The notes under the pieces were generated by a model. The model saw only the letters and a list, made by a program, of their open reading frames with translations, had not been told where the DNA came from and did not search any database. A stretch of 64,000 nt of DNA, from IMG/VR virus record IMGVR_UViG_3300032334_000315, positions 64,001 to 128,000 of that record. The stretch is one strand, 5' to 3'. The translations under genes and the position numbers were made by a program. Below are positions 3,406 to 43,100 of the stretch, piece after piece. Origin of the DNA: a virus. How positions within the stretch are numbered: the stretch's first letter is position 1; each line of letters opens with the position of its first letter.

Positions 3406-3417
3406 ATTAATTCTCCG

Positions 3418-10955: not shown

Positions 10956-10962
10956 CTACACC

Positions 10963-12216: not shown

Positions 12217-12219
12217 TTT

Positions 12220-12864: not shown

Positions 12865-12883
12865 ACCCAACTCCTAGAGAGGA

Positions 12884-12913
12884 AGGCCAAGGGAAACACT
12901 TGTCCCTTGGCCT
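12884..12913 (-). promoter_or_regulatory. perfect 11-bp GC-rich stem-loop (attenuator or stability element)
   Basis: AGGCCAAGGGA-N8-TCCCTTGGCCT; no long U tract follows. Confidence 0.6.
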
Positions 12914-12929
12914 GAGTGATTATATTTAG

Positions 12930-14516: not shown

Positions 14517-14519
14517 TTC

Positions 14520-15212: not shown

Positions 15213-15221
15213 GGCGCGCCT

Positions 15222-16208
15222 TTAAAAAGAACCTCCGTCTAGGTCGGTAAAAGCTGGTGTTCCGTTAGATGTTATTTGCATTACAGATCCGCTGCTACCG
15301 GTTATGAATCCTATCACAGAACTATTGGCTCCAAACATCACACCATTCTTAGTGAATGAAGATAGGCCTGTGCCACCATACTTTGTTCCTAATACAGTCT
15401 GCAAGACTAACTCTGATATGCTTGTCTTACCCGTGGTACTGGAAGACGTAACGATTGTCTGCGTCAGGTTGTTAGCTTGTGTGACTTGGAAAACACCAGC
15501 ACCTGAAACGCCAAGCGATACTCTACCAATATATATCGTATTTGAAGCCACATATAGGCTTTTGAAACGTCTTCCAGGAGAACCTAACGAATAAGTATTG
15601 TTAGCAGCTGGAATTATATCGCGAACTGATATGGTTGTCGCTACGGTATTTGATATTTTTGTTGCCAGCGCATTGTTTACGTTTGCAGCAAAATTGGCAT
15701 TGTTGCCCATTGCCATCGCGATTTCGCGAAGCGTATTTAATACCTCAGGAGCTGAGTTAACCAGCTGTGAAATTTGATTAGCCACATACAGACGAAGTGC
15801 GGTATTGTTGGCTGTAAATGTTAGTGTCTTATTACCACTAGACGTATTGCTAGTGGTAATCTTAATGCCTTGACCACCAATAATTTTAATCGTGTCTTCG
15901 CCTACGGCCACGAGAGCCGCTTGTCCCGGCACATTCCATGTTTTGAACGAACTGCCTAGACTGACCTTGACTGTATTATTACCCCAACTTGCAACAGAAA
16001 ATCCAGTGTCTTTATCAAAACGGATTGCTGATATACCAGAGAACGAATTGGTAATTGTGTTGGCGGTATTGATTTCACTGACAACGATACCGGTTACGAC
16101 ATTAGCAACCTTCTGGTCAACATATCTCTTAGTAGTCGCGTCCGTATTAGCGGTAGGCGTATCTAAGTTTCTGAATACTGTTGGTGTTGGAAACGAAAGT
16201 ACAGCCAT
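15222..16208 (-). CDS. fibre protein with LDGGSF C-terminus
   Basis: PTANTDATTKRYVD, APEVLNTLREIA, IIPAANNTYSLGSPGRRFKSLY and LGTKYGGTGLSS fibre motifs. Confidence 0.72.
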   Translation of the reverse strand: MAVLSFPTPTVFRNLDTPTANTDATTKRYVDQKVANVVTGIVVSEINTANTITNSFSGISAIRFDKDTGFSVASWGNNTVKVSLGSSFKTWNVPGQAALVAVGEDTIKIIGGQGIKITTSNTSSGNKTLTFTANNTALRLYVANQISQLVNSAPEVLNTLREIAMAMGNNANFAANVNNALATKISNTVATTISVRDIIPAANNTYSLGSPGRRFKSLYVASNTIYIGRVSLGVSGAGVFQVTQANNLTQTIVTSSSTTGKTSISELVLQTVLGTKYGGTGLSSFTKNGVMFGANSSVIGFITGSSGSVMQITSNGTPAFTDLDGGSF

Positions 16209-26990: not shown

Positions 26991-27734
26991 TTAGCCGATC
27001 ATATCCGTAACAGGCAAGCTATAGTCATTAATGAGCGATGCTTCCATCGTTGTTATCATATCGTTTGCTTCTTCCCAAATCTTCTGTCCATTAAATGCAA
27101 TACCACCAGGAAGCTGCATGCCTTCATATAGCTTTAGATTCTCGCCCCACTGGCGCTTCACGAGCGCGGTCGCGTACTGTTTTAACCATGAATCGTTCCA
27201 TACATCCGTATATGTGTTCGGATCCAAACTTGCATATCCATCCACGATAATACTATATCCTGGCTGTACGTCGGTGGACCATGCCATGTCAATGTGTAGG
27301 GTATTAGTGTGGCGATTGAAACGGATAGGTTTTTTACCGACAAAGATTTCTTCCAGCGTCTCGATGTGGCGCATAGCCATAACATATGGTGCCACAGAAA
27401 CGCTGGTAATATTGAATAGCTCGTTTAGATGAAGCTGATAGCGAACATTGAACATACTGGTCGTGCTATAGCTATCGCCGAGATCAAAGATACGGGTAAC
27501 GCCAATGATGCTTTCCGGAAGAGTAATGTAACGATTGGTAATGTCGGTAGGAGTAACCACATGCCTATAGAGAACATGTTCGGTGCCATCATAGTGGTAA
27601 TCGCGGTACTTTGCAATAGCGTCGTCGATACGATCTTCGACCTGCTCGTCATCCACATTGATATCAATAACTGGCGCTCCGAGGCGGCGCAGGATATAGT
27701 CTTTGAATTCCTGTCTTGATGCTGGAATAGCCAT
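26991..27734 (-). CDS. gp13: neck protein
   Basis: LRRLGAPVIDINV, WLKQYATALVKRQWGENL, LPGGIAFNG. Confidence 0.95.
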   Translation of the reverse strand: MAIPASRQEFKDYILRRLGAPVIDINVDDEQVEDRIDDAIAKYRDYHYDGTEHVLYRHVVTPTDITNRYITLPESIIGVTRIFDLGDSYSTTSMFNVRYQLHLNELFNITSVSVAPYVMAMRHIETLEEIFVGKKPIRFNRHTNTLHIDMAWSTDVQPGYSIIVDGYASLDPNTYTDVWNDSWLKQYATALVKRQWGENLKLYEGMQLPGGIAFNGQKIWEEANDMITTMEASLINDYSLPVTDMIG

Positions 27735-27793: not shown

Positions 27794-28756
27794 ATGATTC
27801 GTTTGATCGTAATGCTCTTTATTGGCTTCATCTCGCTTGCGGCTGCGGCGGCTGAGCTAAAAATAATCACTCCATCCAATGACGATAGCTATAATATCAA
27901 CGCCAGGATTCTATCCAGGCATCTCGGTAAATACTTACCAGACAATCCTACTATAACTATCCAATCCATGCCAGGCGCTGCGAGCTTAGTTGCAGCCAAT
28001 TACATATACAATATTGCGCCGAGAGATGGTAGCGTTATCGGCATTGTCTATAAAGAGATTCCGTTTGTCGGGCTATTAGGCGGTGACGGAGTCCAGTTTG
28101 ATCCTAATCATTTCAACTGGATTGGGTCGGTAGCAGACGGCCGCAAGGATGCTGTTATTCTATGGGCCAATGAACCGAAGTTTCGGTCAGACTTCGTTGT
28201 AGGTGCTGAGGGTGCCACATCAGGCAACATGGCTTTGTTTGTCAACAAAATGCTTGGCACCAATTTCAAGATTGTCGGTGGTTATCCAACGACCGGTGCT
28301 AACCGTCTCGCGCTTGAGCGCAAGGAAGTGGATGCGGTTATCTATAGTTTGATTGGTATCAAAACGCAAAAGCCCAACTGGTTACAGTCAGGCAGCGGCA
28401 TCTATCCAACGCTTCAGTTTGGCAACGGTACGGCCCGTCTACCAGAATATAAAGAAGTTCCAGCACTGGCTGAATATGTAACAGACGACAAAGACAGAAA
28501 GCTCCTTCATGCTTTTGAATCCCAGTTCATAATGTTGCGCCCATTCGTAGCACCGCCTGGCGTGCCAAAAGCTCGCATAGATGAACTACGCAATGCGTTC
28601 TCAAAAGCAATGGTGGATGCTGAGTATGTTGAAGATGCGCGCCGTGCAAACATAGATATTAATGCTATCAGCGGTGCTGATATGGAAACCATGATAAAGA
28701 CTCCAGTAAATATCGAAACGCTCGATAGTCTCAAACAGATTTATAAGGTAAAGTGA
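27794..28756 (+). CDS. Bug/TctC-family tripartite tricarboxylate transporter substrate-binding protein
   Basis: Signal peptide; ARILSRHLGKYLPDNPTITIQSMPGAAS..AANYIYNIAPRDG, FNWIGS, GYP...LALERKEVD, RPFVAPPGVP. Confidence 0.88.
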   Translation: MIRLIVMLFIGFISLAAAAAELKIITPSNDDSYNINARILSRHLGKYLPDNPTITIQSMPGAASLVAANYIYNIAPRDGSVIGIVYKEIPFVGLLGGDGVQFDPNHFNWIGSVADGRKDAVILWANEPKFRSDFVVGAEGATSGNMALFVNKMLGTNFKIVGGYPTTGANRLALERKEVDAVIYSLIGIKTQKPNWLQSGSGIYPTLQFGNGTARLPEYKEVPALAEYVTDDKDRKLLHAFESQFIMLRPFVAPPGVPKARIDELRNAFSKAMVDAEYVEDARRANIDINAISGADMETMIKTPVNIETLDSLKQIYKVK

Positions 28757-28757
28757 A

Positions 28758-29438
28758 ATGTTCGAACATGCTCTATTTCCTACACTGTTAACCGAATTTG
28801 AATATCCAGAAAAAGATGCGTTCAAAAATGCTTTTTACCAGGGCATCTTCAAGTATATGTCACCCGAAGGATACTCAAGCGAGTTCACTGGCCATGTGAA
28901 TATCCACCATGAACCATCGTTTGAGCCATTCTTCAAGTTTGCTTCAGATTGCGTCAAGCAATATATCGCAAGACTTCACTTGGATCCAAACCTGTTTGAG
29001 TACAATGTGGTCAAAACATGGATGAACATTACTAAAAATCGTATGACACCTATGCACAATCATGCGGACGCGCACATGTCATTTACCTACTACATTAACA
29101 TTCCAAAAGAGTTCTCAAAGCCTATTCGTTTCTTCAACTACAATATGAGACATGAACCGTTCCCAGGTTGTATCAAGTTTAATGATCCATCAAAATGGGA
29201 CGACTTCAATGCATACACATGGCAGATTGAACCACAAGAAGGCAGACTGTTTGTTTTCCCAGCAAATTTGACGCATGACACCGTAGGCCATGAAGAAGAG
29301 AAAGAACCAGGATGCTTCACTCCAGACGATCTGGATCAGATGCGCGTCTGTCTTGCGTGTGATATTCTTCTAACATATAAAAATAAAGCAGCGAAACCAT
29401 TGGGTGTCCAACCTGTGAGTAACTGGAGAATTTTCTGA
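28758..29438 (+). CDS. putative 2OG-Fe(II) oxygenase (TIGR02466-like)
   Basis: LFPT start, WMN, HNHADAHMSFTYY, PQEGRLFVFPANLTH, R.CLACD. Confidence 0.8.
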   Translation: MFEHALFPTLLTEFEYPEKDAFKNAFYQGIFKYMSPEGYSSEFTGHVNIHHEPSFEPFFKFASDCVKQYIARLHLDPNLFEYNVVKTWMNITKNRMTPMHNHADAHMSFTYYINIPKEFSKPIRFFNYNMRHEPFPGCIKFNDPSKWDDFNAYTWQIEPQEGRLFVFPANLTHDTVGHEEEKEPGCFTPDDLDQMRVCLACDILLTYKNKAAKPLGVQPVSNWRIF

Positions 29439-30058
29439 TGGCAAAGTATACAACAATTTATAATGATCCATACCGTCGCGCTAAGATTACTTTGCCGTTT
29501 GCATTTTGGGATGGAGCATTCTCAGACGAAGAACTAAAAGCGGTTATTGAGTATTGCGATTCATTCGGTGTCGAACAGAGTACGCTTACTGGCACCACAG
29601 ACATTGAAGAAATTAAAAAGTACCGCGAATCAAAGATTAAGTTTCATGAGCGTAATCAGGACAACGGCTGGATCTTTGACAAACTAAACTTCATCATTCA
29701 GTCTATCAACGAGATGTATTATGGCTTTGATTTGAATGGATATAATGTGTTCCAGTATACCACATATGACGCTGAAGACGAAGGCCGATATGATTGGCAC
29801 ATGGATATGGCAATGGGCCATGAGCAACCTGGTGTGGCTGAAATTCGCAAGCTATCACTCACTCTCCTATTGGACGATGAGTTTGAGGGTGGTGAGTTCC
29901 AGATCAATGGTAGCAATGCACATGAACCTATCATTGCAGAATTGAAAAAAGGACGGGCTATTTTGTTCCCGTCCTTTATGATTCACCGTGTTACGCCAGT
30001 CACAAAAGGCAAGAGGCGATCAATCGTTGTCTGGGTAGTAGGACCAAAGTTCCAGTAA
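29438..30058 (+). CDS. 2OG-Fe(II) oxygenase (prolyl-4-hydroxylase/PKHD-like)
   Basis: QYTTY, YDWHMD, RKLSLTLLL, FEGGEF, FPSFMIHRVTPVTKGKRRSIVVW. Confidence 0.92.
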   Translation: MAKYTTIYNDPYRRAKITLPFAFWDGAFSDEELKAVIEYCDSFGVEQSTLTGTTDIEEIKKYRESKIKFHERNQDNGWIFDKLNFIIQSINEMYYGFDLNGYNVFQYTTYDAEDEGRYDWHMDMAMGHEQPGVAEIRKLSLTLLLDDEFEGGEFQINGSNAHEPIIAELKKGRAILFPSFMIHRVTPVTKGKRRSIVVWVVGPKFQ

Positions 30059-30970
30059 CTACTTCAACACAATGTCTTTTTCATACTTATCGACAATTTT
30101 ATTTATTTTATCAATTTCTTGTTGAATTTTTTCTCGTTCAAAACATCTGAGTTCATGACCAATCTTCTCAAGTAGTTTTATAAAATCAGTCGATCCACAT
30201 ATTTTTGGCAAAAAAATATCAAACGTCTTTACAAATTCAACTCTTTCTTTCGGTACAGAAAATCCGACAGTTGATACAAAATTAAAATCTGGAACACCAA
30301 CATGTTTTCCATTAGGAATATTTGATGCTTCTAAACTAGATGATAAGATTGGTCTCAAGCCTATGATGTCTTGTGGCGAAAATATTGTATAGTCAGCTTC
30401 GTTTACCAATATGCTTTTTGTTATTTCATATGGTGATGTGTAATTTAAATCTTTAGATTTAAAGCCAATCGACTTTAATAAAACAACATTAAGATACGGT
30501 GTTATTGCATTTGTTGTTGTATTCCCAAAGTATACAGTTTTTCCTGAGCTAAAAAGATTTTTTAAATCATTAAACGATTTGATATTTGATTTCGGGTTAA
30601 CGGCAAGATGAAAAGGTGTTCCAGAAAAAGATTGTACTTGAACAACATCACTATTTCGATTATAGGCATTTATATTTGGGCTGGTATATCTACCTAAAGT
30701 GACACCGGATATACCAGACCAAATCAGAACGTCTTCGCCGGCTCTGGCCGCAGATATAGCTCTAAGGGTAGCATTATCTCCACCAGCTCCTGGTATTGAA
30801 GTAAGCCGAAATTGAACATCATTCTGAATAATATTGAGTTGAGATATTACTTCTGTCCCTACAAGCATTCCAACACTGCCTGGGGTAAACATCGAGTAAA
30901 CATTTACTTCTTTTGCCATAGCACAATTTGACAATAGTAAAAAAAATAATGCAAACATTTTATTAAACAT
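30059..30970 (-). CDS. divergent Bug/TctC-like secreted solute-binding protein
   Basis: Signal peptide ending AMA; FTPGS, IPGAGG and LAVNPKSNIKSFNDL motifs; paralogue of 33859..34791. Confidence 0.65.
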   Translation of the reverse strand: MFNKMFALFFLLLSNCAMAKEVNVYSMFTPGSVGMLVGTEVISQLNIIQNDVQFRLTSIPGAGGDNATLRAISAARAGEDVLIWSGISGVTLGRYTSPNINAYNRNSDVVQVQSFSGTPFHLAVNPKSNIKSFNDLKNLFSSGKTVYFGNTTTNAITPYLNVVLLKSIGFKSKDLNYTSPYEITKSILVNEADYTIFSPQDIIGLRPILSSSLEASNIPNGKHVGVPDFNFVSTVGFSVPKERVEFVKTFDIFLPKICGSTDFIKLLEKIGHELRCFEREKIQQEIDKINKIVDKYEKDIVLK

Positions 30971-30982
30971 AATAAAATTTCC

Positions 30983-32185
30983 TTAAAATTCTGGCTTAAA
31001 TTGTCCGAGATAATAAAGTCTAGAAAATAGAGTCTTATTCAAGTTTGATTTGTTTGCTATTTTATCATATTTTTTCCATTTGTGCGATTGATAATCAGCA
31101 TAAAAATCATGCGCCGTATGAGATATACCAATAGTTTCTACCAACTTTATATCGGGACTTATTTTTGTTGGTTTAGAGCCAACAAAAATATTTGGATCCC
31201 AATCCGGATAAATGATTGTATTATACCATCTATCTAAAATAAAACCTGGTGGACATTTTATTTTTGGATCAGACAATGCGTTTTTTACCACATTTCGTAT
31301 GTACATCCACTCATTATATAATTTTTTACTTTTTGCCAATTTATCAATAATTACTTGACACTGTTTTACCGGTATCATTGGAAAATCTGGTGACCAGTAA
31401 AAATCTTCGACTGTATATGGAGCACCTTCTTTTTGAAGAGATACTCCGATATTTGCGAGAGTGATATCGGAAAACAAAAAGAAAATTTTACCATCGTCGG
31501 TAATGTCAATAATGGGTTTTTCGAGGCCTCTGATAACAGCTACATTTTCTTTTGTTATAGACTGTCTTTCGTGTTTAATTAAAAGTGGTGACCAATTTTT
31601 TCCTACACCTCCTGTAACCCATCTAAGTGACCTAGGTTCATCGTTATGACCAAGATACTCATATTTTTTTCCACCTATTTGCGTGATTAAATTTTCCGAC
31701 GAATCAATCAATGTAATTTTAGTGTTTGGACTATATTTTTTAATTTTATTTAACTGTGGTATAACGGCCATCTCAAATTCCATAAACTCGGTGAGATCCT
31801 CGTCATTAAGCAATATGCTACGATCCAATCTATTAATCGCTCTCTGGTGATGAACAATAACGATCTCATCTAAAAAAATATTATTTTTAAGAAAAGTTTC
31901 CAAAACTTGTGTTGAATCGCTACCTCCGGAATATCTTAAAATTAGATATCGGTATTTATCACGCAACTGTTGGGCGCGATCTCTATACAGGACCGATATG
32001 TCAAGGTGTATGGTTTTTTCCCAGTTGATGTTTGAAAAAATATGGTCGTTGTAATAGAATTGAATCTTACCGCCATAATCTTTCTTTAATAGCATAAGAT
32101 CCAATGCATCTTCTCGCATTACAAAAGTTTGGTTATCATAAACATAATAACCCAGGTGTGGGTACTTTATATCAAAAGTTAACAT
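30983..32185 (-). CDS. PP-loop (adenine nucleotide alpha-hydrolase-like) enzyme
   Basis: YRDRAQQLRDKYRYLILRYSGGSDSTQVL..F..NNIFLDEI; RGLEKP; EDFYWSPD. Confidence 0.75.
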   Translation of the reverse strand: MLTFDIKYPHLGYYVYDNQTFVMREDALDLMLLKKDYGGKIQFYYNDHIFSNINWEKTIHLDISVLYRDRAQQLRDKYRYLILRYSGGSDSTQVLETFLKNNIFLDEIVIVHHQRAINRLDRSILLNDEDLTEFMEFEMAVIPQLNKIKKYSPNTKITLIDSSENLITQIGGKKYEYLGHNDEPRSLRWVTGGVGKNWSPLLIKHERQSITKENVAVIRGLEKPIIDITDDGKIFFLFSDITLANIGVSLQKEGAPYTVEDFYWSPDFPMIPVKQCQVIIDKLAKSKKLYNEWMYIRNVVKNALSDPKIKCPPGFILDRWYNTIIYPDWDPNIFVGSKPTKISPDIKLVETIGISHTAHDFYADYQSHKWKKYDKIANKSNLNKTLFSRLYYLGQFKPEF

Positions 32186-32620
32186 TTATTTGTTTTCATA
32201 AAATGGATACAGCTCGCCTGTCTTTCTATTGCGGTATGAATAGTAAAATTGAAAATTTACGTCTCTTAAATTTGACTTTGGATTCAAATCTAGCATTTTC
32301 TGTTTGATATCAACAATCGCTGTATTGTAAGCTCTTGCTAGAGCGATATTTGAAAAGTAATATTCAATAATCAATGTGGTGTCATCTTCTGTATATCTGC
32401 GCGTCCAACCTTCAAATCCTTCAAATAGTTCTGGAGCCATTTGATCTCTAAGATTCTTCGTTGCTCTAAAATGAGCGGTATTTTTTATAGTGACGTTATC
32501 TCTAACATCAAACAAAACATCGACAGCCTTTGGTGAATTGATAGGAACATAGATGTCCGCCCAATTACCGCCCTCAGATTTGACAGTGATTATACTGAAT
32601 ATGATTGGTGCGTCGGTCAT
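32186..32620 (-). CDS. hypothetical protein (144 aa, start MTDAP)
   Basis: GAGGAG SD 6 nt upstream of ATG 32620; first gene of the leftward cassette. Confidence 0.6.
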   Translation of the reverse strand: MTDAPIIFSIITVKSEGGNWADIYVPINSPKAVDVLFDVRDNVTIKNTAHFRATKNLRDQMAPELFEGFEGWTRRYTEDDTTLIIEYYFSNIALARAYNTAIVDIKQKMLDLNPKSNLRDVNFQFYYSYRNRKTGELYPFYENK

Positions 32621-32646
32621 AAAATTCTCCTCGTTTGATTCTGGTC

Positions 32647-32661
32647 TATTTAGCATATATA
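32647..32661. promoter_or_regulatory. divergent late-type promoter pair (CTAAATA on minus; TATATA on plus)
   Basis: TATTTAG at 32647-53; TATATA at 32656-61 lies 5 nt before the ATG at 32667. Confidence 0.5.
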
Positions 32662-32666
32662 AACAT

Positions 32667-33857
32667 ATGAAATTGCATAATGGATATTACACCTATAACG
32701 GAAAAATGTTTTTTGCTCGTGAGGACGCATTTGATGCGATGCTATTGAATAATGATCTCAGCGGTCAAATTTTATTCAATTACAATGATCCTATCTTCGC
32801 GAACATCAATTGGACTAAAGATCCAAAGATAAACATTTCTAGTCTATATCGTATGCGCGCTCAACAAATCCGAGATAAGTATAAGTATGTCATACTTTCG
32901 TTTTCTGGTGGTAGCGATTCAACTCAAGTTCTTCAAACTTTTTTGAATAATGACATATTCATAGACGAAATCCAAGTATCAACTTTGGACAAAATGACGC
33001 ACCGATTTAATAAACAAGAATTGGCTAAAGATCGAGATTTGGGATATATCATGGAATACGAGTATGCTGTAAAACCTATGTTAAAGATCGTCAAAGAAAA
33101 ATCACCAGATACCAAAATTACGATTCATGATGCTTCTGATTATCTACACGATCAGTTGTCTGAGAAGAAATTTTTTCCATTAGGAAATGATGCACGAACG
33201 AGAGTCGGTTCTCCTAGAATGTCACCTGGTGTAGGTCCATCATTCATATGGTGGTATATGTACAATACAATTAATTCAGATAAGTCAACAGACAGAGATG
33301 GTGTATGTATTGTTAGAGGCTTTGAAAAACCGTCAATTATGATTGACGATGACAACAAGATGTATTTTCATTTCTATGACCATACTATGATTTCAACGGC
33401 CGCAATCAATAAAGGTGAAGTTGTTGAAAATTATACCACTGAAGATTTTTTTTGGTCTCCAGATATGCCTTTTATTCCGGTCAAACAGTGTCATATGATT
33501 CTGAATAAGTTCAGAAGTGACAAAAAATTTCTAAACAAATATAAAGATGGATTGAAAGCTATCGACGAATTTGCTAAATTAAATTACAAACCTGTGTATT
33601 CGCCAGCAATTCATATCGAACGAATGTTGTGTGAGATTATATATCCAAATTGGAATCCTAATACGTTTGTGGCACCTAAGCCAACAAACATAAGTCCAGA
33701 GTTCAAGATATATGAGCTGGCTGTTGGAAAACACTTCGGTAATGATTTCAAAAAAGAAATCCAAAACTATAAAGAATCCAAATATGACGCAATATTAGAC
33801 AAAAGACAATTTTATAGAATGATTCCATCGAAAAAATATTATGTAGGAGACATATAG
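32667..33857 (+). CDS. PP-loop (adenine nucleotide alpha-hydrolase-like) enzyme (start MKLHNG)
   Basis: YRMRAQQIRDKYKYVILSFSGGSDSTQVL; RGFEKP; EDFFWSPD; aligns along its length with 30983..32185. Confidence 0.75.
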   Translation: MKLHNGYYTYNGKMFFAREDAFDAMLLNNDLSGQILFNYNDPIFANINWTKDPKINISSLYRMRAQQIRDKYKYVILSFSGGSDSTQVLQTFLNNDIFIDEIQVSTLDKMTHRFNKQELAKDRDLGYIMEYEYAVKPMLKIVKEKSPDTKITIHDASDYLHDQLSEKKFFPLGNDARTRVGSPRMSPGVGPSFIWWYMYNTINSDKSTDRDGVCIVRGFEKPSIMIDDDNKMYFHFYDHTMISTAAINKGEVVENYTTEDFFWSPDMPFIPVKQCHMILNKFRSDKKFLNKYKDGLKAIDEFAKLNYKPVYSPAIHIERMLCEIIYPNWNPNTFVAPKPTNISPEFKIYELAVGKHFGNDFKKEIQNYKESKYDAILDKRQFYRMIPSKKYYVGDI

Positions 33858-33858
33858 A

Positions 33859-34791
33859 ATGTGGATGCGAATTTTATCTTTCTTGCTCGGCACGTCATTT
33901 ATGATAACCAGTGCGTTTGCTTTGGAAGAGCGAGTCAATATTTACACCAGATTTGCAGCTGGTGACAACACTATCATTATGGTTAACATGATGATTAAGC
34001 AGTTGAATAAGAAATATGAAGGTGTTTACGATTTTAGGGTCAACATTATTCCTGGATCAGGTGGAGAATCTGCCGACCAGAGAGCTATATTGGATGCCAA
34101 TGCAGGAATAAACACACTTGTCGTAGGCAGCATTTCAAATTTTGCTATCAATCCAATTGTCTACGATTCAAAAATCAATCGCGATATCGAATTTATTCCA
34201 GTTGAGTTGGCCCATAGATTACCAAACGCAATCATGGTAAATCCAGACTTAAATATCAATACGGTCGACGATCTGGTAAAGCATATTAGAAACAAGAATA
34301 AAGCTTACAGCGGAAACACTCTGCAAGCAACTTCTCCGATTCTGTTAGACTCAATATTCAGAACTCATTATGGATTGAATAATGTTGAGAGTGTAAAATA
34401 TAAAGCACCACCTGAAGTTGCGAAGAGCGTTCTTATTAATGAAGTCGATTATTCAATTTTAAATCCCATCGACACCACAGGGTTAAAGCTTTTAGCAATT
34501 TCGTTTCCTCAAAGAGATGCTTATTTTCCAAATATTCCTACGGGAATTGAATCTGGCATGCCAGATTTTAATTATGCTTCAAGCATGATGTTCTATGTGC
34601 CAAAAGCAAGTCTGAAATTTGTCGCTACTATCAGACAGGAACTCCATCAAGCATGCCTTGATAGCTATGGTATTGATATGGTAAAAACTCTTAAAATTAC
34701 ACCAATATGCAATAACGATGAGACATTTCTTTGGAAAGAAATTACTAGAGAAAGATTGCTAGCCCTAAAACATAAAGACTCACTCAAATAA
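33859..34791 (+). CDS. divergent Bug/TctC-like secreted solute-binding protein
   Basis: Signal peptide ending AFA; FAAGD, IPGSGG, INTVDDLV and R..YFPNIPT..ESG.PDF Bug-like motifs. Confidence 0.7.
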   Translation: MWMRILSFLLGTSFMITSAFALEERVNIYTRFAAGDNTIIMVNMMIKQLNKKYEGVYDFRVNIIPGSGGESADQRAILDANAGINTLVVGSISNFAINPIVYDSKINRDIEFIPVELAHRLPNAIMVNPDLNINTVDDLVKHIRNKNKAYSGNTLQATSPILLDSIFRTHYGLNNVESVKYKAPPEVAKSVLINEVDYSILNPIDTTGLKLLAISFPQRDAYFPNIPTGIESGMPDFNYASSMMFYVPKASLKFVATIRQELHQACLDSYGIDMVKTLKITPICNNDETFLWKEITRERLLALKHKDSLK

Positions 34792-35580
34792 TGCTAAAAA
34801 CTGTTCTTTGGTACCAAAAGTGTGATTAGGATCAGGCGTATGTACTCTATGCTGCCTGATACGGACAAATACTAGATCATATCCTGATCCATAATCATAC
34901 GAGAATTTTGGTCTCCATGGAATGTTATAGATCCTTGATTTGAAATCTTGAACCGTTTCATTACCCATTTCTTTTACCATAGCACAACACAGTTCTGGCG
35001 TGTATGTGAAAAAGTAATGGGTATTATCATTGTGAATTAAAACGTCATTGTAGAAATCCCACTCATTAGCACCAACATACATTTGTCCATCATTGTCGTC
35101 AATGATGTGTTCGCTCATAATCATAATCCCGCCATGATCTTCTGCGTATCTACCGACTATAAGGCCTGGTACAGAATTGTGACCATATCCACTTAATTTT
35201 TTAAATATGTCATCAACAAAGATCGTCAATAGTTCAGACGGTGTTTTGTCGATAACTATAGGATCTATTCCGTACTCCTTGCAAGTACGAAAAGCATAAG
35301 CCGATTCATATTTGTTTATTGGCGTATTGACAATAACGGGAATTACGTTATGATCGCGTTCGACCATACGTCTAAACACGAACTCTGAATCCATACCGCC
35401 ACTAAAACCAATAAACAACTTTTCTGATTTATCAGCAATTAAATCGGCAGTGTAATCTGTAGCTGCATCAAAAGACATTATATTGTATGGCTTTGTATTC
35501 AGATGCACAGAAAAATTTGTCGAATTGTTTATTAATCTTTTGGATAGATTACTTCGAAGCCAATTGTTTTCCGTTGCCAT
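34780..35580 (-). CDS. PP-loop enzyme (shorter subfamily)
   Basis: LFIGFSGGMDSEFV motif. Confidence 0.7.
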   Translation of the reverse strand: MATENNWLRSNLSKRLINNSTNFSVHLNTKPYNIMSFDAATDYTADLIADKSEKLFIGFSGGMDSEFVFRRMVERDHNVIPVIVNTPINKYESAYAFRTCKEYGIDPIVIDKTPSELLTIFVDDIFKKLSGYGHNSVPGLIVGRYAEDHGGIMIMSEHIIDDNDGQMYVGANEWDFYNDVLIHNDNTHYFFTYTPELCCAMVKEMGNETVQDFKSRIYNIPWRPKFSYDYGSGYDLVFVRIRQHRVHTPDPNHTFGTKEQFLALFE

Positions 35581-36016
35581 CTAAGCCTTTCCATGTACCA
35601 AATATCAAGTCCCAAATGGGAATGAACACGCCATAATTTTTGGTGGCATAATCATGGTGAATGAGATGCCACTTGCCACTGGTTAGGAATGGATAGAGAT
35701 TGATGCGCTTGTTATGTTCGACCGCCTCTTGGATAAAGCCAGCCCAAATGTAGTACGCAACTAAAAGCCACCAATGACCAGTGATTGCAGATATTATAAT
35801 CGTTGGAATCACTTCTGTCAACCACTGATCTATGGTGCTATTCCAGGTATCGAAAAAAAGAAATGCGTTTTTCCAGTTTAGACCTTGGATTGTTTGGTCT
35901 GTTACCTGCGCGTGATGATCCATGTGAAATTTACGGACAATCGGAATCACATGGGCCGCACGATGCGCCCAATAGACGACAAAAGTCCATAAAAGAAACA
36001 CAAGGAAGTAGCTCAT
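35549..36016 (-). CDS. fatty acid hydroxylase/sterol desaturase family membrane protein
   Basis: His boxes YWAHRAAH, FHMDHH, EHN and WHLIHH; NYG...WDLIFGT; hydrophobic segments; ATGA-coupled start at 36016. Confidence 0.85.
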   Translation of the reverse strand: MSYFLVFLLWTFVVYWAHRAAHVIPIVRKFHMDHHAQVTDQTIQGLNWKNAFLFFDTWNSTIDQWLTEVIPTIIISAITGHWWLLVAYYIWAGFIQEAVEHNKRINLYPFLTSGKWHLIHHDYATKNYGVFIPIWDLIFGTWKGLDGNGKQLASK

Positions 36017-37068
36017 TTTAGATAGTATGGTTGCGAAAAGAAGCAATGCTTTCTATTTATCGCTGTATGCTTTGATATAGTTCTCATGCCTTCCAGCGTC
36101 ATTCTATACATAGCACTATCGGTTTTTGATAGCATGAACATATCTCTGGCGCTGAGCGAGCTATACATGGATTTGGTCGATTCAAATTGAAGTGGTGTTC
36201 TGAGGTTATATATGATGCTATTCATCCGTTTCATGCGGTCCATATATGCGACTTCTCTTTGCCAACCATGAGGTAATGTTTTACCCTGCATTATCATATC
36301 AACAAAAAGCGTTTCAAACCTCATGACAACGTGGGCCTGCTTTACCATGATCTTTATTACGATGTCATCTGTACCGTTGTAGAAATTGATGCGCTTGAAG
36401 TTTTCATCTTCATAGTTTGCACCATAGTCATTGACGGATAGATCATTAAATCGGACGCAGTTATCGAGGGCTTCATATCCTGGCTTGTCGGAACCCATAA
36501 TATAGCATGTCTTTTTGTTATTGTCTTTGCCAATAAACTTCTTCAGGTCATACCAGAATAGATTATGAACGCTTTTAAATGCACCGATATGATCGGTCCA
36601 TTCATTACCATATTTTTTAATGAGTGTGAAATTGTTTGGATCGGTAAAGTGTTCGGTATAGTCAGATACCGTAATCTTTGTGTTCGGTAGATGCATACCG
36701 TTTAGAGTCGGAAACGCATTGAGATATATGTCGCCGTTATGATTTTCGTCGGTGCCTTTTTGTTTATCTTGAGAGAATGCGCCGACTAAAAGTATCTCGT
36801 CTATCAAAATATTATTGTAGTAGAATGTTTCCAATATGTTGGTAGAGTCGTAGCCTCCAGAATAGCATAGGATCACGTGGTCATATTGATCGCGAATCTG
36901 CTGTGCGCGTTCGCGATACAATACATCTAGAGTTTCAGTTGGCTCTGTTTTCCAATCGACTTTTTTAAAAACGTCATCGTAAAAATAAAAAGAACAATGT
37001 CTGTTTGAAGCAACAGCCGCAGCGTGTGTTGGATAGACATTTCTATCCTCATCATAATAAAACATCAT
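36013..37068 (-). CDS. PP-loop enzyme
   Basis: WKTEP..L..LYRERAQQIRDQYDHVILCYSGGYDSTNIL..F..NNILIDEI; GSDKP. Confidence 0.75.
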   Translation of the reverse strand: MMFYYDEDRNVYPTHAAAVASNRHCSFYFYDDVFKKVDWKTEPTETLDVLYRERAQQIRDQYDHVILCYSGGYDSTNILETFYYNNILIDEILLVGAFSQDKQKGTDENHNGDIYLNAFPTLNGMHLPNTKITVSDYTEHFTDPNNFTLIKKYGNEWTDHIGAFKSVHNLFWYDLKKFIGKDNNKKTCYIMGSDKPGYEALDNCVRFNDLSVNDYGANYEDENFKRINFYNGTDDIVIKIMVKQAHVVMRFETLFVDMIMQGKTLPHGWQREVAYMDRMKRMNSIIYNLRTPLQFESTKSMYSSLSARDMFMLSKTDSAMYRMTLEGMRTISKHTAINRKHCFFSQPYYLK

Positions 37069-37077: not shown

Positions 37078-37509
37078 TTACCCTGCTGTTTTGTTGGTAA
37101 AATTATCCTTTGATAGCGAATCAATCAAACTCTTAATATCATCATCTGTTAGAACATCGGCCTTCTTAGCAAGAAGTTCATCAGTATTTTTAATAACGGT
37201 TTTACCAAGCATTGCTTTTACATTTGTTAAAGATGTATCTATATCTGGATTATTTACAGCTTCCATTTTACGAAGCCATGCCATTGGTGCGTTCATAAGG
37301 ATAAAATCTTCAAGCACTTGCCCTTCTAGTGGTGGAATTGGCATGTCTAAAGATACATCCGTGCGGCAGCGCATAGGAGTACTGTCTGGGCGACGATTAA
37401 CATCGTTTGCCACTTTTAGCATTTCTTCGGTTATTTTATCAGTTGTATATCTGACAACAAACAAATGGTCATCAGGCCATACTTCAATGATTCTGTAATG
37501 AATGTTCAT
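37078..37509 (-). CDS. hypothetical protein, possible adhesin chaperone
   Basis: 143 aa, ATGA-coupled to the adhesin gene. Confidence 0.55.
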   Translation of the reverse strand: MNIHYRIIEVWPDDHLFVVRYTTDKITEEMLKVANDVNRRPDSTPMRCRTDVSLDMPIPPLEGQVLEDFILMNAPMAWLRKMEAVNNPDIDTSLTNVKAMLGKTVIKNTDELLAKKADVLTDDDIKSLIDSLSKDNFTNKTAG

Positions 37510-38870
37510 CCTACTGGTCCCGTTCTAGTTCCTGTGTTAATCCAACTTGTCACATATGCATTACCAGTTACGGCATTTCCTTGCGAACCTGTAGCACCAG
37601 TCGCACCTGTGGCTCCTGTGTCTCCAACTGCGCCTGTGGCTCCTGTGTTTCCTGGTGTTCCTGTTCCTCCAACATTTCCTACAGCACCAGCATTACCTGC
37701 AGGCCCATAACCACCTGCACCGCCGCCACCTTGAACGACACCCCAACCGCCTGGTGAACCATAAGGAGGATTATAACTTGCAGCACCACCAGCTCCTATA
37801 TTACCGCCGGGTCCGCCTGATGCGTAACCAGACCAACCAATAGTACCACCACCGCCACCACCATTAGCACCACCACCACCGCCAGCGTTTCCTGAAGTCA
37901 CGCCAGGATAATAGCCTCCGCCACCTCCTCCACCATAACTACCACCACCGCCGCCGCCTCCACCGGCACCGTCCGGATCGGCCTTAGCGTTATAAGCATA
38001 ACCACCTCCGCCTCCTCCACCACCGCCTCCGGTAGCTGCTCCACCACCATTGCCCGGTGAACCTCCAGCGCCCCCAGGTGCACCAGCGCCACCGGGCCCA
38101 CCTGGGCCTCCTGGTCCGCCAGGGCCACCGACTCCGCCGGGCCCTCCTGTTCCACCGGCACCGCCGATAAATGATGTTGTGTTTTCAATAACCGTTATTA
38201 GACCAGTAACGGAGTCAACCTGAAATGCGATACCGCCGGTACCACCAGCGTTACCAGTCACACCAGTGCCGCCTGTATTTCCTTTGCCGCCTGCGTTGCC
38301 TTGCCCACCACCATTACCGGGTGAGCCGTTATTTCCCGGTGCACCGTTATTACCTGGATTAGCAGGTGAACCGCCGCCGCCTCCATTACCAGATACTTGC
38401 CAATAAGCAGGCGAGTTATAACCAGCGGGCACACCCTTAGATGCAGGATAATAACCTGTAGCAGGAAAATAAATTGGTGATCCTGCACCGCCACCACCAC
38501 CGACACCATTTGAACCTGGATTACCTGGTGTCCCAGTATTACCTGGTGTGCCTGGGTTTCCCGCAAGGCCTGTAGTGCCGGAGTTTCCTGTAGTGCCTGG
38601 ATTACCTGTAGCACCTTGATTACCAGAAGTGCCTGTGCCGCCTGTGATGGTAGAAGTATTCTTCACATACACAAACGAACCAGCTTTCCAACCAGTTCCA
38701 GTCTTAAATGCTGGTGTGTTAGGTGATGATGATCCGATGTTATTATTGATAAAGCATAGCAAGTTCAACGGATATGTAGGTGCAGCCGATGTGTTATATA
38801 GGTCTACGTTATTCGTAGAGCTATCAATACTAACAACCTTAGTTGGTCTTGCCATTAAAAATGTGAACAT
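37506..38870 (-). CDS. gp38-like polyglycine adhesin with collagen-like G-X-Y arms
   Basis: NTSTITGGTG, ENTTSFIGGAGG and C-terminal GNAVTGN...WINTGTRTG resemble T-even gp38; long GNPG/GTPG/GATG triplet runs. Confidence 0.65.
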   Translation of the reverse strand: MFTFLMARPTKVVSIDSSTNNVDLYNTSAAPTYPLNLLCFINNNIGSSSPNTPAFKTGTGWKAGSFVYVKNTSTITGGTGTSGNQGATGNPGTTGNSGTTGLAGNPGTPGNTGTPGNPGSNGVGGGGGAGSPIYFPATGYYPASKGVPAGYNSPAYWQVSGNGGGGGSPANPGNNGAPGNNGSPGNGGGQGNAGGKGNTGGTGVTGNAGGTGGIAFQVDSVTGLITVIENTTSFIGGAGGTGGPGGVGGPGGPGGPGGPGGAGAPGGAGGSPGNGGGAATGGGGGGGGGGYAYNAKADPDGAGGGGGGGGSYGGGGGGGYYPGVTSGNAGGGGGANGGGGGGTIGWSGYASGGPGGNIGAGGAASYNPPYGSPGGWGVVQGGGGAGGYGPAGNAGAVGNVGGTGTPGNTGATGAVGDTGATGATGATGSQGNAVTGNAYVTSWINTGTRTGPVG

Positions 38871-38873: not shown

Positions 38874-39902
38874 TTATCTTACATCCGGCATGAATGAACC
38901 ATAGAGATATGTACCATCAGAAACGAACGAAAATACGTCATGCGCGCCCGCAGCAGTAGATAGAGGAGGTGCAACACCAGCAGTCCACTTAAAGATTGCA
39001 TTCCATGTTGCTGTACGACCACCGGTACCGTCTTGATAAATGTGGAGAATATATGTACCGACTTTTAGATTTGATGGTGCACCGATTGTGCGATTACCAC
39101 CAATCGTCACAGTAGCAATCTGACCTAATGCTGTGTTCCACGCTACTGTGGCCGCATCTGAAAGTGTTTGCTGTAGAATGTTTGCGGTTGCGGTGCTTAC
39201 TGTTCCATTGAATGTGGAGTTACCAGAAACTGTGAGATTCTGAGTGACATTTAGTGATCTATTTACAGTAACAAGACCAGAAGATGCAATGGTAAATCTA
39301 TCAGCCAGACCGAGCTGAACACCCCAACCCGAAGTGTTAGCTGTAATCTTTGCGACTTCAACACCATTGATGGTATAGAAGTCATATGTGTTATAACCCG
39401 TCGGCGCTTTTCTTTGGAATGCTGCCGTTGCACCTGTCGATTCGGCCAGAACCGCTTGACTGGCTGCTCTAGAAACCGTAAGAACACCACCAATATTAGT
39501 ATTACCACCAACAAAAAGATTTGTGGAAACAGTCGCACGACCAACAACATTTGCTGTGCCTGTAATAAAAGTTGTTTTGTTTGCTCCACCTAAAAACGTA
39601 TTACCAGATACGTTTAGATTCGTGCCGACTGTAAGGCGACCAGACGCGGTTGTTAGGCCTGTAAATGTGGAGTTGCCTGTAACGCCTAGATTGGTACCAA
39701 CTACGGCTCTACCTGATGCAGTGAATAGACCCGTGACAGTTGCAGTACCTTTTGCAGTGAACGCTACGTTAGATGTCAGAGTGTTAGCATAAAGAGAAGA
39801 GTTGTTGATAGCAAACTGGCTCATACGATCCAACACAGTGTTGGTTCGCGTTCTCCACGTATTAAATGTATCCGTAAGGGCGACGTTAGCTATCTTAGCC
39901 AT
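38874..39902 (-). CDS. tail fibre protein
   Basis: TDTFNTWRTRTN N-terminus, NLxVxGN repeats, C-terminal QDGTGGRT..W...FKW....PPLST domain. Confidence 0.75.
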   Translation of the reverse strand: MAKIANVALTDTFNTWRTRTNTVLDRMSQFAINNSSLYANTLTSNVAFTAKGTATVTGLFTASGRAVVGTNLGVTGNSTFTGLTTASGRLTVGTNLNVSGNTFLGGANKTTFITGTANVVGRATVSTNLFVGGNTNIGGVLTVSRAASQAVLAESTGATAAFQRKAPTGYNTYDFYTINGVEVAKITANTSGWGVQLGLADRFTIASSGLVTVNRSLNVTQNLTVSGNSTFNGTVSTATANILQQTLSDAATVAWNTALGQIATVTIGGNRTIGAPSNLKVGTYILHIYQDGTGGRTATWNAIFKWTAGVAPPLSTAAGAHDVFSFVSDGTYLYGSFMPDVR

Positions 39903-39905: not shown

Positions 39906-40121
39906 TTATCCTATCTTGTCTAAAAGTCGCTGCATCAGCGATTTTATTTGATCTATATCAGACTTCATATTATTTATATCTGAAAGAGCAGCGTCCAATT
40001 CCTGTTGCTTATTTCTCTTACGTCTATAAGCTTCAAGGCCATCAATATCGGTACTCAGAACAGCCTGGTTAGTAACATCTCTGACTAACCCAGGCGCGTC
40101 TTTTACTTTTGCTACTTGCAT
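39906..40121 (-). CDS. small conserved T4-like protein found after VrlC-like genes
   Basis: LVRD...AVL....Y...R...DINNMKSDIDQIKSLM coiled coil. Confidence 0.65.
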   Translation of the reverse strand: MQVAKVKDAPGLVRDVTNQAVLSTDIDGLEAYRRKRNKQQELDAALSDINNMKSDIDQIKSLMQRLLDKIG

Positions 40122-40124: not shown

Positions 40125-43100
40125 TTACCTCTGTAGTGCAATTGCTCTAAGTTCATGGACTGTTGGTGGATTCGTGCTGGTATCAGCAGTCAATACGACT
40201 TTAACAGCAAAGAACTTGAATCGCACATAACGAGCTTTTGTTGAGTTGCGATATTCAACATAACCAGTTGTGTTATTTGCACCATACTGATTGATAGCAC
40301 GACCAGATGTGTCGGTAATAGCAGTTGTTGGGAAGTTTGGCATATTGTATGTTAGCTCAATATAATCTTCCTTATTGATGCTGCTTGAATATCTAGTTGT
40401 TCCAGTGTAACCCTGAGATGTGTCACGACTCATAGGAATCCAACGTGCATCTTCAAACAAATCATTGTCGTCCGCATTTAGGATCTTAGCATATACCTTA
40501 ACATCGGATCCCGGTGGAATGTATGCTGCTAGATACACACGAAGGTCTTCTGCATCTTGACCATCTGCGAGTGTCACGCGACGAGTGACATAACGAGTTT
40601 TAGAATTGCCACCGGACTTTACCCAATCTTCTGATGATCCAATTTCTGTGTTAGAACTAATCAGATTGCGAGTTGCGACCAATGAAATTCTGCGAAGATC
40701 AATAGCTGGTGAAGCAACAGCATTTCGGCCATTAAGAATGTACTGTATTTCAGCGGACTTATTTCTAGCCATTGTTGAGCTTGAAGCTGAAGTGTTTGCT
40801 TCAATGCTGCGACTCAAAATATAATGAGGAGATGAGAGTTCAGCCACATCATTAATTATAATTTCTCCGAATGATGAATCGCGTGTGCTTGTGCTTGAAG
40901 CAAACTTAGCATATGCTCCTACAGATGTATTTGATGGTTGAATCAAATTGGTAATCAAGCTGACATTGTCCATTGATACGCTATCAATTGTTACGATACA
41001 AGCTGTGTACGCATTTGTTTGACCTGTGATGTACATACCGGGGAAGAACATACGGTTTGCACTGTTTGCTGGTCCACTGTTTGCATATGCTGTGTTGGCA
41101 ATATGTAGTTTGGTGTTTGCGTAATTCACAACATCATAATAAACTGTTCTACCAACTGGATATGTTGCAGACTTTAGCGCAGTACATGTACCAATTTGTA
41201 CGCCCGTTGTTGGATTAGTGTTACGAATCGTAATTGTTTCACCACCCTTGAATGCTGCACCAATTGAATTACCTTTAATGCGAATTGCACTAGTGCTCCA
41301 AGATGTGATTGTGCCGGTTGCTCCTGATGTTTGGCCCTGTGCATAGCAAAGGATTGAGCCAGCCGTATTAACTGATTTCGTATTAGAGAACGTACCTACT
41401 AGAAGCTGTTCGCCATAAACAAGTTCACCAATCTTATTGAATGCACCTGTTGTGTTAGCGATAGTGAAGTAGTCGCGATTCTCATTCTTTAGAACCAAAG
41501 TGCCTGTAGAGCTAGAAGCAAATTTTGCGTAGTACGCAGTAAACTTCAAATCTTCATTTTCTACCGGCACCCATGTGCGCTGATTTGCTGAAGTGAATAG
41601 GAATCCTGCAGCTGGCTGCTCAGAAACACGAGACTTTGTTATAATATCTTTTTCACCAAGAACGGCTGTAAATGCATTGTAGTTTGGATTTGTACCTGCT
41701 GGAATGAGAACAATCGCATATTCTTTGCCGTCACCCACATAAACTGGTGATGGGAAATATACCGGTGTTACCGCAGATCCGTCATCGCTGATATTGATAT
41801 CGGCCGACGGAACAACAACACGAGAGAATGGCACAACGCGAGTTGTAATGTACGCTGTAGCTGGATCCACTTCACGCAATTCAATAATAATTGGAAGTGT
41901 TGCATCTTTAGTTGCAAAATATAAATCCAACTTAGTTAGATACATTCCACTTGTTTGAATTCGGTTTGACAATAGTGCTGTAATAAGCATGGTCTGTGCG
42001 ATAGGATCATCTGATCCTCCACAACCACCATCGCCTCCACCACCACCGTCTCCACCGCCTCCACCGTCGCCGGGAGCTGGGCCAGCATCACCTGCATCAC
42101 CAGGAATAACACCAACGAGACGTTGCCCACCAACTTCATTTGTCGTTGTTTGATTGACGTTTTTAATTTCAGTCAACAATTGTTGTGAAATTGTTGCTCT
42201 TTTTGTTGAAAGAGTTAAGTCTGAAATGCCTGCCATCAAACCTTCAGATGAATAATCCGTTTCGGCTGATGTTGTAAACTGACCAAAAACAAGACTATTT
42301 GTTGAATTATCAACAAAACGTAGACGCTTAGTTCCTGTACGGAAACGAAGTGATGAATCGCTAGGTAGACGGAATATACCATATGCAGACCCATCAGCGC
42401 CAGTATTTAAAGATGCTCCTTCAACAGCGGTTGGTTTTGTCGGAACACCGTTTACCTTAAGACCAGAGTTATATTCATCGGCTGTTAGTGGTGTGATGTA
42501 TCTATTAACATCTACTCCGTCAAAAAAACCATAGATACGGCTACTAGACTTCATTCCAACAATTTTGAAGATAATCATGCGCGAGCGCATGAATGGTTGA
42601 ATATTTACGTCTTTAACAAAATTACCTAAAGTCTGTTTATTATTTGTTACTGTAGCTATAGTTTGACTACCAGTTCTTCCTTCAATTGTAGGTGTTGTAA
42701 AGATATTTTGCGTGATGAAATTCTGCATCACGTTTGTGGAACCGTCAGCTTGAGGTACAAGAGTTTGATCCGTATCTCTATTATTTGACGAGCTTAAAAC
42801 TGGTGTACCAACAAATGTTTGTTGCCATCCATTCCATGATGTTGGCCATGCATTAGCTAACCAAATCCAGTTATCTGTGTTCAAATCAATATTGATATCA
42901 ACATCTGGTCGCTGCGTTGTGTCCATCCAATAATCACTATCAGGTGTGATTGTGATTGTGCCTCTCCACAAGAACGCTGTACCAACACAATTACGAGTTG
43001 TCGTTGCATAAGGTTGTGTTACCAAAACATCGTGACTATATGGTAAAGTTACAAGATCGCCAGGAACAGCATTAGATACCGAAACGATAGAAACTGACGC

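Follow-up and report, generated by a model that had tools for sequence, protein, structure and literature searches.

A conserved viral module pairs PP-loop proteins with TctC-like binding proteins in T4-like and other phages

A conserved accessory island in a T4-like phage

The stretch analyzed here, 64,000 nucleotides long and hereafter called the window, comprises bases 64001–128000 of the IMG/VR virus record IMGVR_UViG_3300032334_000315 (154,689 bp, estimated to be 93% complete), which belongs to a T4-like myovirus. At positions 27794–37068, an earlier note on this DNA had described an island of eleven packed genes encoding PP-loop proteins (PP), TctC-like substrate-binding proteins (SBP), 2-oxoglutarate (2OG)-Fe(II) oxygenases (OG) and a membrane hydroxylase (FAH); all of these open reading frames (ORFs) are present at those positions. 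The island emerges as an accessory module that is conserved and specific to viruses, with three sub-units: SBP1-OG5-OG3; two mirror-image cassettes of an ABM-like small protein, a PP protein of about 400 residues and a TctC-like protein; and PP4-FA_hydroxylase-PP3, which has the same orientation as the fiber genes. We favor, at about an even chance, the explanation that an organic acid would enter through the permease of the host, in the manner of a tripartite tricarboxylate transporter (TTT), and undergo ATP-dependent amidation by the cognate PP enzyme, followed by tailoring by the oxygenases.

We fetched 86 loci, called their ORFs and clustered the encoded proteins; 80 of the loci were the best of 532 contigs bearing PP genes, near-duplicates included. 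Genes were called as the longest ORFs, and families were delimited by BLAST clusters and home-made hidden Markov models (HMMs), all of which are crude procedures. As the earlier note had proposed, the island behaves as a concerted module and not as a chance neighborhood, since the same array is found again in T4-like contigs even where PP identity has fallen to 35–40%. This array runs from the fiber-side genes through an ORF of 143 residues, PP4, FAH, PP3, a small ORF and PP to one or two copies of TctC, and continues on the opposite strand with OG3, OG5 and SBP1, followed by gp13–gp17. The order SBP1-OG5-OG3 is conserved in 16 loci.

PP-loop and TctC-like genes form recurrent pairs

A check of co-occurrence extended the pairing well beyond this phage: the PP gene directly adjoins a TctC-like gene in 50 of 77 IMG/VR PP loci, across unrelated phage contexts, and still does so in 40 of 71 groups of long PP proteins after dereplication at 60% identity. 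Adjacent PP and TctC genes are mostly co-oriented (57 of 61 pairs on the same strand) and separated by a median gap of −4 nt. For loci with at least two pairs, we assigned paralogues separately from the enzyme and from the binding protein; the two assignments agreed 28 times and disagreed 5 times, which indicates that the PP-TctC pair is inherited as a unit.

Two such pairs are found in the window. On the minus strand, the small companion protein (32186–32620) is followed by PP1 (30983–32185), a protein of 400 residues with the motif SGGSDS, and by its cognate partner SBP2 (30059–30970), a TctC-like binding protein predicted to be exported. The second pair lies on the plus strand and consists of PP2 (32667–33857), a paralogue of PP1 that also carries SGGSDS, and its cognate partner SBP3 (33859–34791), a binding protein of the TctC family that is likewise predicted to be exported. 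The ORF of the small protein extends to 32656, with a likely start at 32620 (MTDAP...), and that of PP2 opens at 32553, with a start at 32667 that fits the N-terminus of the family; these two starts leave a divergent gap of 46 bp between the mirror-image cassettes.

The base composition of this block differs from that of its surroundings. Its GC content (window positions 30059–34791) is 33–37%, compared to 42% for the window and 45–46% for the adjoining gp13 and SBP1 genes, which suggests that the block has a different origin from its flanks or arrived later. Such a difference would be expected if the island were a hypervariable site where independent accessory genes have gathered with no common pathway, as would the 12 of 77 PP loci that lack any binding protein, the DctP-like genes that mostly stand apart from PP genes (described below) and the fact that 2OG oxygenases are common in cyanophage-like myoviruses anyway. 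We nevertheless consider unrelated cargo very unlikely. Binding proteins of this kind are otherwise rare in phages (a tblastn search with SBP3 found none in 50,697 phage records), yet they adjoin PP genes in most loci; moreover, the PP and TctC pairs co-diversify, and the full array is maintained at low protein identity.

Two further loci connect the PP genes with transport, and the first of them lends real support to the suggestion of the earlier note that the island captures carboxylates. In one phage, the PP gene lies inside a tctC-PP-x-tctB-tctA cluster (locus L066), where the order is tctC, PP, an ORF of 203 residues, tctB (PF07331, E = 2.8e-10), tctA (PF01970, E = 2.4e-156) and a B12 radical-SAM gene. 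Locus L066 encodes two TctA homologues, one TctB and at least two TctC-like proteins (9108–15383 and 2799–5035), and thus a complete TTT transporter. Another locus (L080) has the order PP, DctP-like gene, tctA (E = 6e-34) and TctC-like gene. Of the arguments that uptake is the true task of the receptors and that the imported compound is used by the enzyme, the strongest is this placement of a PP ligase gene within a full TTT operon.

DctP-like proteins were tried as an equivalent partner to the TctC-like proteins and were dropped from the core, as they mostly occur without PP and lack a signal peptide. A PP gene was found within 6 kb of 29 of 80 DctP-like loci and adjacent in nine. These DctP/TRAP-type homologues, found at L006:11237-12205 and on 434 IMG/VR contigs (L095–L174), share the invariant motif G-[LM]-A-F-T-Y-S-G-G; the leaderless phage proteins are predicted to be cytoplasmic and are mostly encoded apart from PP genes. 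A search with a leaderless DctP-like protein against the 50,697 phage records returned two weak matches, both to unannotated gut contigs. An arginine is known to bind the carboxylate in DctP-type proteins (PMC4646407), and this position is kept in 14 of 19 DctP-like proteins. Neighbors of the PP-SBP cassettes in other phages (L064:4440-5684, L083:4682-5455, L077:5131-5667) include genes for a tryptophan halogenase, PhoH, a peroxiredoxin-like redoxin, DUF2061 and ferritin, a typical set of accessory cargo for aquatic phages.

The PP-loop proteins form a viral family with an AsnB-like predicted fold

Four PP-loop paralogues with an SGGxDS motif had been claimed; the motif is present in each of PP1 to PP4, and BLAST established their paralogy. 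PP1 and PP2 share 43% identity (E = 3e-103) and PP1 matches PP4 at E = 2e-23; the E-values of PP4 range from about 1e-20 to 1e-23, and PP2 matches PP3 at E = 1e-3. PP3 (34780–35580, minus strand) is a short paralogue of 266 residues with the motif SGGMDS. It is tied to the family by the existence of natural fusion proteins (677–689 residues) in which a PP3-type protein is fused N-terminally to a PP1/2-type protein, and these fusions suggest that the two types may act together. PP4 (36013–37068, minus strand; 351 residues, SGGYDS) is the first gene of the conserved PP4-FAH-PP3 triad.

A phylogenetic tree resolved four subfamilies, namely the short PP3 type, the PP4 type, the PP1/2 type and a diverse clade from other phages. 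The subfamilies differ in their neighbors: PP1/2-type proteins adjoin TctC in 37 of 40 cases, the PP4 clade adjoins FAH in 17 of 21, and members of the PP3 clade usually adjoin FAH too. The same record carries a fifth PP paralogue (380 residues) outside the window (L003; G000:C1:7439-11368). Its gene is flanked by a radical-SAM/SPASM gene on one side and by a phage gene for an outer-membrane beta-barrel protein on the other, and an AdoMet decarboxylase gene lies nearby. In loci L006 and L049, too, PP genes adjoin radical-SAM/SPASM genes.

The family is large and looks essentially restricted to viruses on the evidence of sequence searches. A word-indexed search with the family returned 147 matches, all of them annotated as hypothetical, and an exhaustive search (E ≤ 1e-3) returned 1,827 representatives of clusters formed at 50% identity; PP genes occur on 532 IMG/VR contigs. 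The nearest Atlas clusters consist of viruses to 99–100%. Among the cellular genomes of 185,579 species, two contigs of metagenome-assembled genomes matched, both through one search pattern, in a scan of limited sensitivity.

Sequence comparisons placed the family outside known groups. The PP proteins matched no Pfam, NCBIfam or PHROG family; in a Pfam scan of 105 members, the sole match to a PP-loop family was a weak one to ATP_bind_3, and the AsnB model PF00733 was not matched by any member (0 of 105 at E ≤ 0.01). Searches of PDB sequences using phmmer and family profiles found nothing. Against the NCBIfam LarE model, scores of 19.5 and 11.9 bits were obtained (cut-off 150), with PP3 showing a weak match to the PP-loop of LarE. 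QueC, TilS, AsnB and PAPS reductase were the housekeeping families in which, according to the earlier note, placement of the PP proteins would count against its proposal, and none of the 105 members matches the respective Pfam models. An identity as QueC, TilS, PAPS reductase or LarE was rejected, given that the sequence models do not fit and that structures align over a core of about 160–180 residues only (Z = 6–7). SGGxDS is present in 104 of the 105 members at a median position of 83, and none of the 105 has a cysteine at position 2. A PP-loop this close to the N-terminus, together with the lack of Cys2, indicates that the family has no glutaminase domain (about 200 residues).

A fold prediction pointed to one superfamily. 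The AlphaFold2 model of PP1, built from an alignment of 105 sequences, had a pLDDT of 94 and a pTM of 0.92. In an exhaustive structural search, its best match was Escherichia coli AsnB (1ct9_A; Z = 11.2, root-mean-square deviation 5.3, 293 residues aligned), followed by human ASNS (Z = 10.7), beta-lactam synthetase (1jgt; 9.8), TsnB9 (9.4) and carbapenam synthetase (8.6). All five of these best matches are AsnB-type synthetases, each aligned over 281–293 residues, whereas GMP and NAD synthetases, TilS, LarE and QueC scored below 7.8 over about 160–185 residues. Foldseek detected only the shared PP-loop core. On the strength of the model, the PP family appears to be a new stand-alone branch shaped like the AsnB synthetase domain and not a member of AsnB itself. 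By analogy with AsnB, and given the intact PP-loop, its members would adenylate a carboxyl group, which a nitrogen nucleophile would then attack. A predicted complex between PP1 and the mature form of SBP2 scored 0.00, short of the threshold, and was counted neither for nor against an association.

The binding proteins are divergent relatives of bacterial Bug receptors

All three proteins that the earlier note had called Bug/TctC-like with signal peptides could be placed in that family, by routes of differing directness. SBP3 exceeds the Pfam TctC cut-off (44.4 bits, cut-off 27), and SBP2 is connected through SBP3, with which it shares 34% identity (E = 1e-36). SBP1 (27794–28756, plus strand), the first gene of the SBP1-OG5-OG3 operon, is a divergent TctC/Bug-type protein: its match to Pfam TctC is weak (16.5 bits, E = 0.006) and below the cut-off, and it was assigned by profile comparison, as hhalign aligned the SBP1 family profile with the TctC-like profile at 96.9% probability (E = 1.5e-10, 274 columns). 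The profile of the phage TctC-like family to which SBP3 belongs matches solved TTT receptors at E-values between 8e-16 and 8e-11, in alignments that bring the PGAGG motifs together; these receptors are 7ndr (8e-16), BugE, Bug27, the terephthalate-binding protein and BugD. The phage TctC-like family, SBP2 included, has two invariant cysteines.

Export was assessed using a hydrophobicity heuristic and not a dedicated predictor. SBP1, SBP2 and SBP3 each have a hydrophobic N-terminal segment with a site of the A-x-A type (...CAMA/KE in SBP2). Such a hydrophobic N-terminus was present in 65 of 71 TctC-like and 16 of 16 SBP1-like proteins, compared to 3 of 162 PP proteins.

The closest cellular relatives of the phage TctC-like family are bacterial Bug proteins, at 24–27% identity, and this distance argues against a recent pick-up from a host. 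As the earlier note had observed for the window, no TctA or TctB accompanies the receptors; the observation holds for the whole 154,689-bp record, in which we found no TctA, TctB, DctP or DctM.

Oxygenases, a membrane hydroxylase and a small companion protein

The remaining island proteins include candidate tailoring enzymes. Both 2OG-Fe(II) oxygenases named in the earlier note score above the Pfam cut-offs. OG5 (28758–29438, plus strand; 226 residues) matches PF13759 at 45.4 bits (cut-off 27) and resembles TIGR02466, for which its NCBIfam score of 36 bits is below the cut-off. OG3 (29438–30058, plus strand; 206 residues) is a prolyl-4-hydroxylase/PKHD-like protein that matches PF13640 at 54.8 bits and displays the iron-binding motif HMD...H. 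Oxygenases of this class are common in cyanophage-like myoviruses regardless of the PP-TctC module (PMC9146016).

The small companion protein belongs to a conserved family with the motifs D-x-R-D and W-x-R-x-Y. Its model (pLDDT 86) resembles a ferredoxin-like, dimeric alpha/beta barrel of the ABM kind, and its top structural matches are of the ABM, IsdG and SnoaB type (Z = 8.3–7.5, 90–102 residues aligned); nearly all of the top 20 matches are ABM-type (Z = 8.3–6.4), while the Foldseek E-value is only about 1e-2. The protein may share its fold with these dimeric alpha/beta-barrel proteins; it has no sequence similarity to them and about 35 extra residues. An ABM-like fold would fit a role in tailoring a small molecule, with Z-scores of this size supporting a shared fold only.

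These enzymes, together with the paired inheritance of ligase and binder, raise the possibility that the PP proteins and oxygenases make an amide-linked molecule, such as a metal chelator or a signal, that is exported and then recaptured or sensed by the binding protein. AsnB relatives that form amides build natural products (beta-lactam synthetase, carbapenam synthetase and TsnB9), enzymes resembling the ABM-like, 2OG and di-iron proteins are typical of tailoring, and iron or radical-SAM enzymes are frequent among the neighbors in other phages. Nevertheless, the island contains neither an exporter nor a scaffold-building enzyme (nonribosomal peptide synthetase, polyketide synthase or nonribosomal-peptide-synthetase-independent siderophore synthetase). 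TTT systems are importers, and an imported external acid accounts for the pairing more simply. We therefore regard a synthase paired with its own receptor as unlikely.

The His-box hydroxylase or desaturase of the earlier note is a membrane di-iron enzyme of the FA_hydroxylase family (FAH; 35549–36046, minus strand), which matches PF04116 at 60 bits (cut-off 31) and contains three His boxes: HRAAH, HMDHH and HLIHH (HxxxH, HxxHH and HxxHH). Its likely start is at 36016, which creates an ATGA overlap with the stop codon of PP4. No specific enzyme could be assigned; the match to the ornithine-lipid hydroxylase OlsE is faint (18 bits, E = 0.0014) and far under the cut-off of 475. This faint resemblance is one indication that FAH and the AsnB-like enzymes might remodel the host envelope by modifying lipids, peptidoglycan or surface sugars, with a block to superinfection or a changed cell surface as possible outcomes. 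Bacterial AsnB homologues amidate peptidoglycan and uronic acids, and the fifth PP paralogue adjoins the phage outer-membrane beta-barrel gene. However, the island lacks glycosyl- and acyltransferases, and envelope remodeling would leave unexplained both the tight pairing with receptors and the tctB and tctA neighbors. We give this explanation hardly any weight.

Genes flanking the island

Pfam matches at 23.1–27.0 kb of the window identify the gp14 neck protein, gp15, a small terminase domain and TerL, the last being about 56% identical to TerL of Pelagibacter phage HTVC008M and of cyanomyoviruses. The neck-gene flank described in the earlier note was upheld by the Pfam match of gp14 and by a homologue of the protein encoded at 26991–27734, which carries PF26809 (Phage_T4_gp13) in locus L005; the gp38-like adhesin placed on the other flank had no Pfam match and could not be verified. 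That flank begins with a conserved protein of 143 residues (37078–37509, minus strand), for which Pfam, PHROG and NCBIfam searches all returned no match; the 23 members of its cluster come from 23 loci, where their genes invariably lie upstream of PP4 or FAH. Next comes the protein that the earlier note had called gp38-like, a glycine-rich, collagen-like protein of 454 residues (37506–38870, minus strand), in which glycine makes up 36% of the residues and G-X-Y units are repeated up to 14 times in a row. It belongs to a cluster of 17 that is kept just upstream of the island. Further along the minus strand are a protein of 342 residues (38874–39902), whose homologues carry PF26209 (Phage_phiTE_241_C), and one of 2,173 residues (40125–46646) with DUF4815. 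Both are probably fiber or baseplate proteins, and in T4-like phages their genes lie ahead of the island.

The late expression assumed in the earlier note was not borne out. The T4 late motif TATAAATA is not more common than expected by chance. Its seven copies in the window (766, 2649, 14999, 23104, 39971, 48868 and 61542) are all found on the minus strand, where most structural genes are encoded. One copy (39971–39978) is located upstream of the run of fiber genes and PP4-FAH-PP3. Scans for sigma-70 promoters and terminators in the window gave results at chance level only.

The flanking genes also bear on whether the enzymes decorate the virion by modifying fiber or adhesin proteins whose genes lie on the same strand. 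The prolyl-4-hydroxylase-like oxygenase could, for instance, hydroxylate the collagen-like protein, and the PP ligases could attach an acid or an amine to it. In T4-like phages, the island always comes after the fiber-side genes (those for the phiTE_241_C-like, glycine-rich and 143-residue proteins), and PP4-FAH-PP3 is co-oriented with these, with overlaps or tiny gaps. The membership of OG3 in the prolyl-hydroxylase-like family PF13640 and the G-X-Y repeats of the neighboring protein are consistent with such a role. We found no evidence, however, for the ligation onto virion proteins or lipids that the earlier note had entertained. Fiber-side genes are present in just 23 of 78 PP loci, whereas PP-TctC adjacency spans lineages, which indicates that the fiber link is a feature of one clade and the PP-TctC link is general. 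Furthermore, signal peptides would take the binding proteins out of the compartment in which virions are assembled, FAH is a membrane enzyme, and one relative has PP among tctC, tctB and tctA. Decoration of the virion is, in our judgment, improbable.

Discussion

The island combines features of systems known separately. Like the synthetase domain of AsnB and its relatives (beta-lactam and carbapenam synthetases, TsnB9), the PP proteins have the SGGxDS motif and, in the PP1 model, a fold that aligns over about 290 residues (Z = 11.2–8.6). The expected chemistry would also be alike, with ATP adenylating a carboxyl group before attack by a nitrogen nucleophile. In contrast to AsnB, the phage proteins have no detectable similarity to PF00733 (0 of 105), lack the N-terminal nucleophile (Ntn) glutaminase domain, appear confined to viruses, occur as several paralogues and are paired with transporter receptors. 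The phage TctC-like proteins, for their part, share the Pfam TctC domain, the PGAGG motif and a signal peptide with the TctCBA and orphan Bug receptors of Bordetella and its relatives. Many of these lack a permease of their own, which is normal for bacterial Bug proteins, and their genes stand beside those of cytoplasmic enzymes that presumably use the ligand. The phage receptors differ in that they occur in a lytic-type phage, are only 24–27% identical to cellular ones, are encoded in a genome without tctA and tctB, and have as partner a PP enzyme family not recorded in cells.

Cyanophage PstS provides a precedent, being a phage-encoded receptor in the periplasm that works with a transporter of the host and raises uptake during infection. 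The island receptors would likewise be phage-encoded periplasmic receptors for a host transporter. PstS, though, is encoded by a solitary gene almost identical to one of the host, whereas the island receptors are ancient viral lineages, present in multiple copies and locked to a virus-specific ligase.

We searched for this combination among known phage families, records and publications. None of the ten island proteins searched against PHROG could be assigned to a family. Neither a megablast search with the island nor tblastn searches with PP1, SBP3 and a distant PP protein (P0071) matched any of the 50,697 deposited phage records. Literature searches found no paper describing a phage module of the TctC/TTT/DctP type or of the asparagine-synthetase-like type. 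Hence, no PHROG, cultured phage or paper with this module was found in the searches.

Under the uptake-and-amidation explanation that we favor, the TctC-like proteins would be exported to the periplasm and act as high-affinity receptors of the TTT type. Each would bind a small organic acid and deliver it to a TctAB permease, which would be that of the host here; a small number of relatives carry permease genes themselves. Once the acid is in the cytoplasm, its cognate PP enzyme would adenylate the carboxyl group of the imported acid with ATP; with the glutaminase domain absent, free ammonia or another amine would attack the adenylate to form an amide. PP3 probably joins a long PP protein as its partner subunit, and tailoring of the substrate or the product would fall to the 2OG oxygenases, the di-iron hydroxylase of the membrane and the ABM-like protein. 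The gene content, predicted folds, signal peptides, adjacency and joint inheritance of the cassettes, the lack of a permease in this phage and the tctB and tctA genes around PP in another are observations; from these we infer export, the class of ligand, the adenylation and amidation chemistry, the order of steps, the timing of expression and the benefit to the phage.

Several observations weigh against this explanation. In about one-third of PP loci and in 30 of 71 dereplicated groups, no binding protein adjoins PP, and the 12 of 77 loci mentioned above lack one entirely. Few phages encode tctA themselves (3 of 47 viral records), and the host would need to possess a TctAB that accepts very divergent receptors (24–27% identity to bacterial Bug proteins). 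Signal peptides are missing from the DctP-like proteins encoded next to PP genes of other phages (0 of 29), which means that some binding-protein homologues of these cassettes cannot work as receptors in the periplasm. The AsnB link of the PP family comes through structure, with sequence profiles finding nothing, and both the amide-ligating role of the PP enzymes and the binding of acids by the receptors are predictions. In addition, four to five ligase paralogues per genome exceed what simple amidation of one nutrient would need. A bolder proposal, which is possible though doubtful, is a virus-exclusive capture-and-ligate system in which receptor-ligase pairs would let uncultured aquatic phages harvest particular dissolved organic acids. 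The amide-linked product made from each acid would meet a need peculiar to phages and without counterpart in cells; it might be released, for example, or be built into the virion or the genome.

The PP proteins form a large enzyme family with no Pfam model; it comprises 1,827 clusters, occurs on 532 IMG/VR contigs and apparently exists in viruses only. Tight pairing with a receptor is rare for phage 'dark matter', and the ligand of a purified binding protein would name the substrate of the enzyme. If the proposed chemistry is correct, a stand-alone branch dependent on ammonia or an amine would be added to the asparagine-synthetase superfamily. Should the capture-and-ligate proposal hold, hundreds of phage lineages would share a metabolic system of a new class. 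Finally, if phages import and convert dissolved organic acids by means of this module, they would directly reshape uptake by the aquatic bacteria that they infect, beyond the case of phosphate and PstS.

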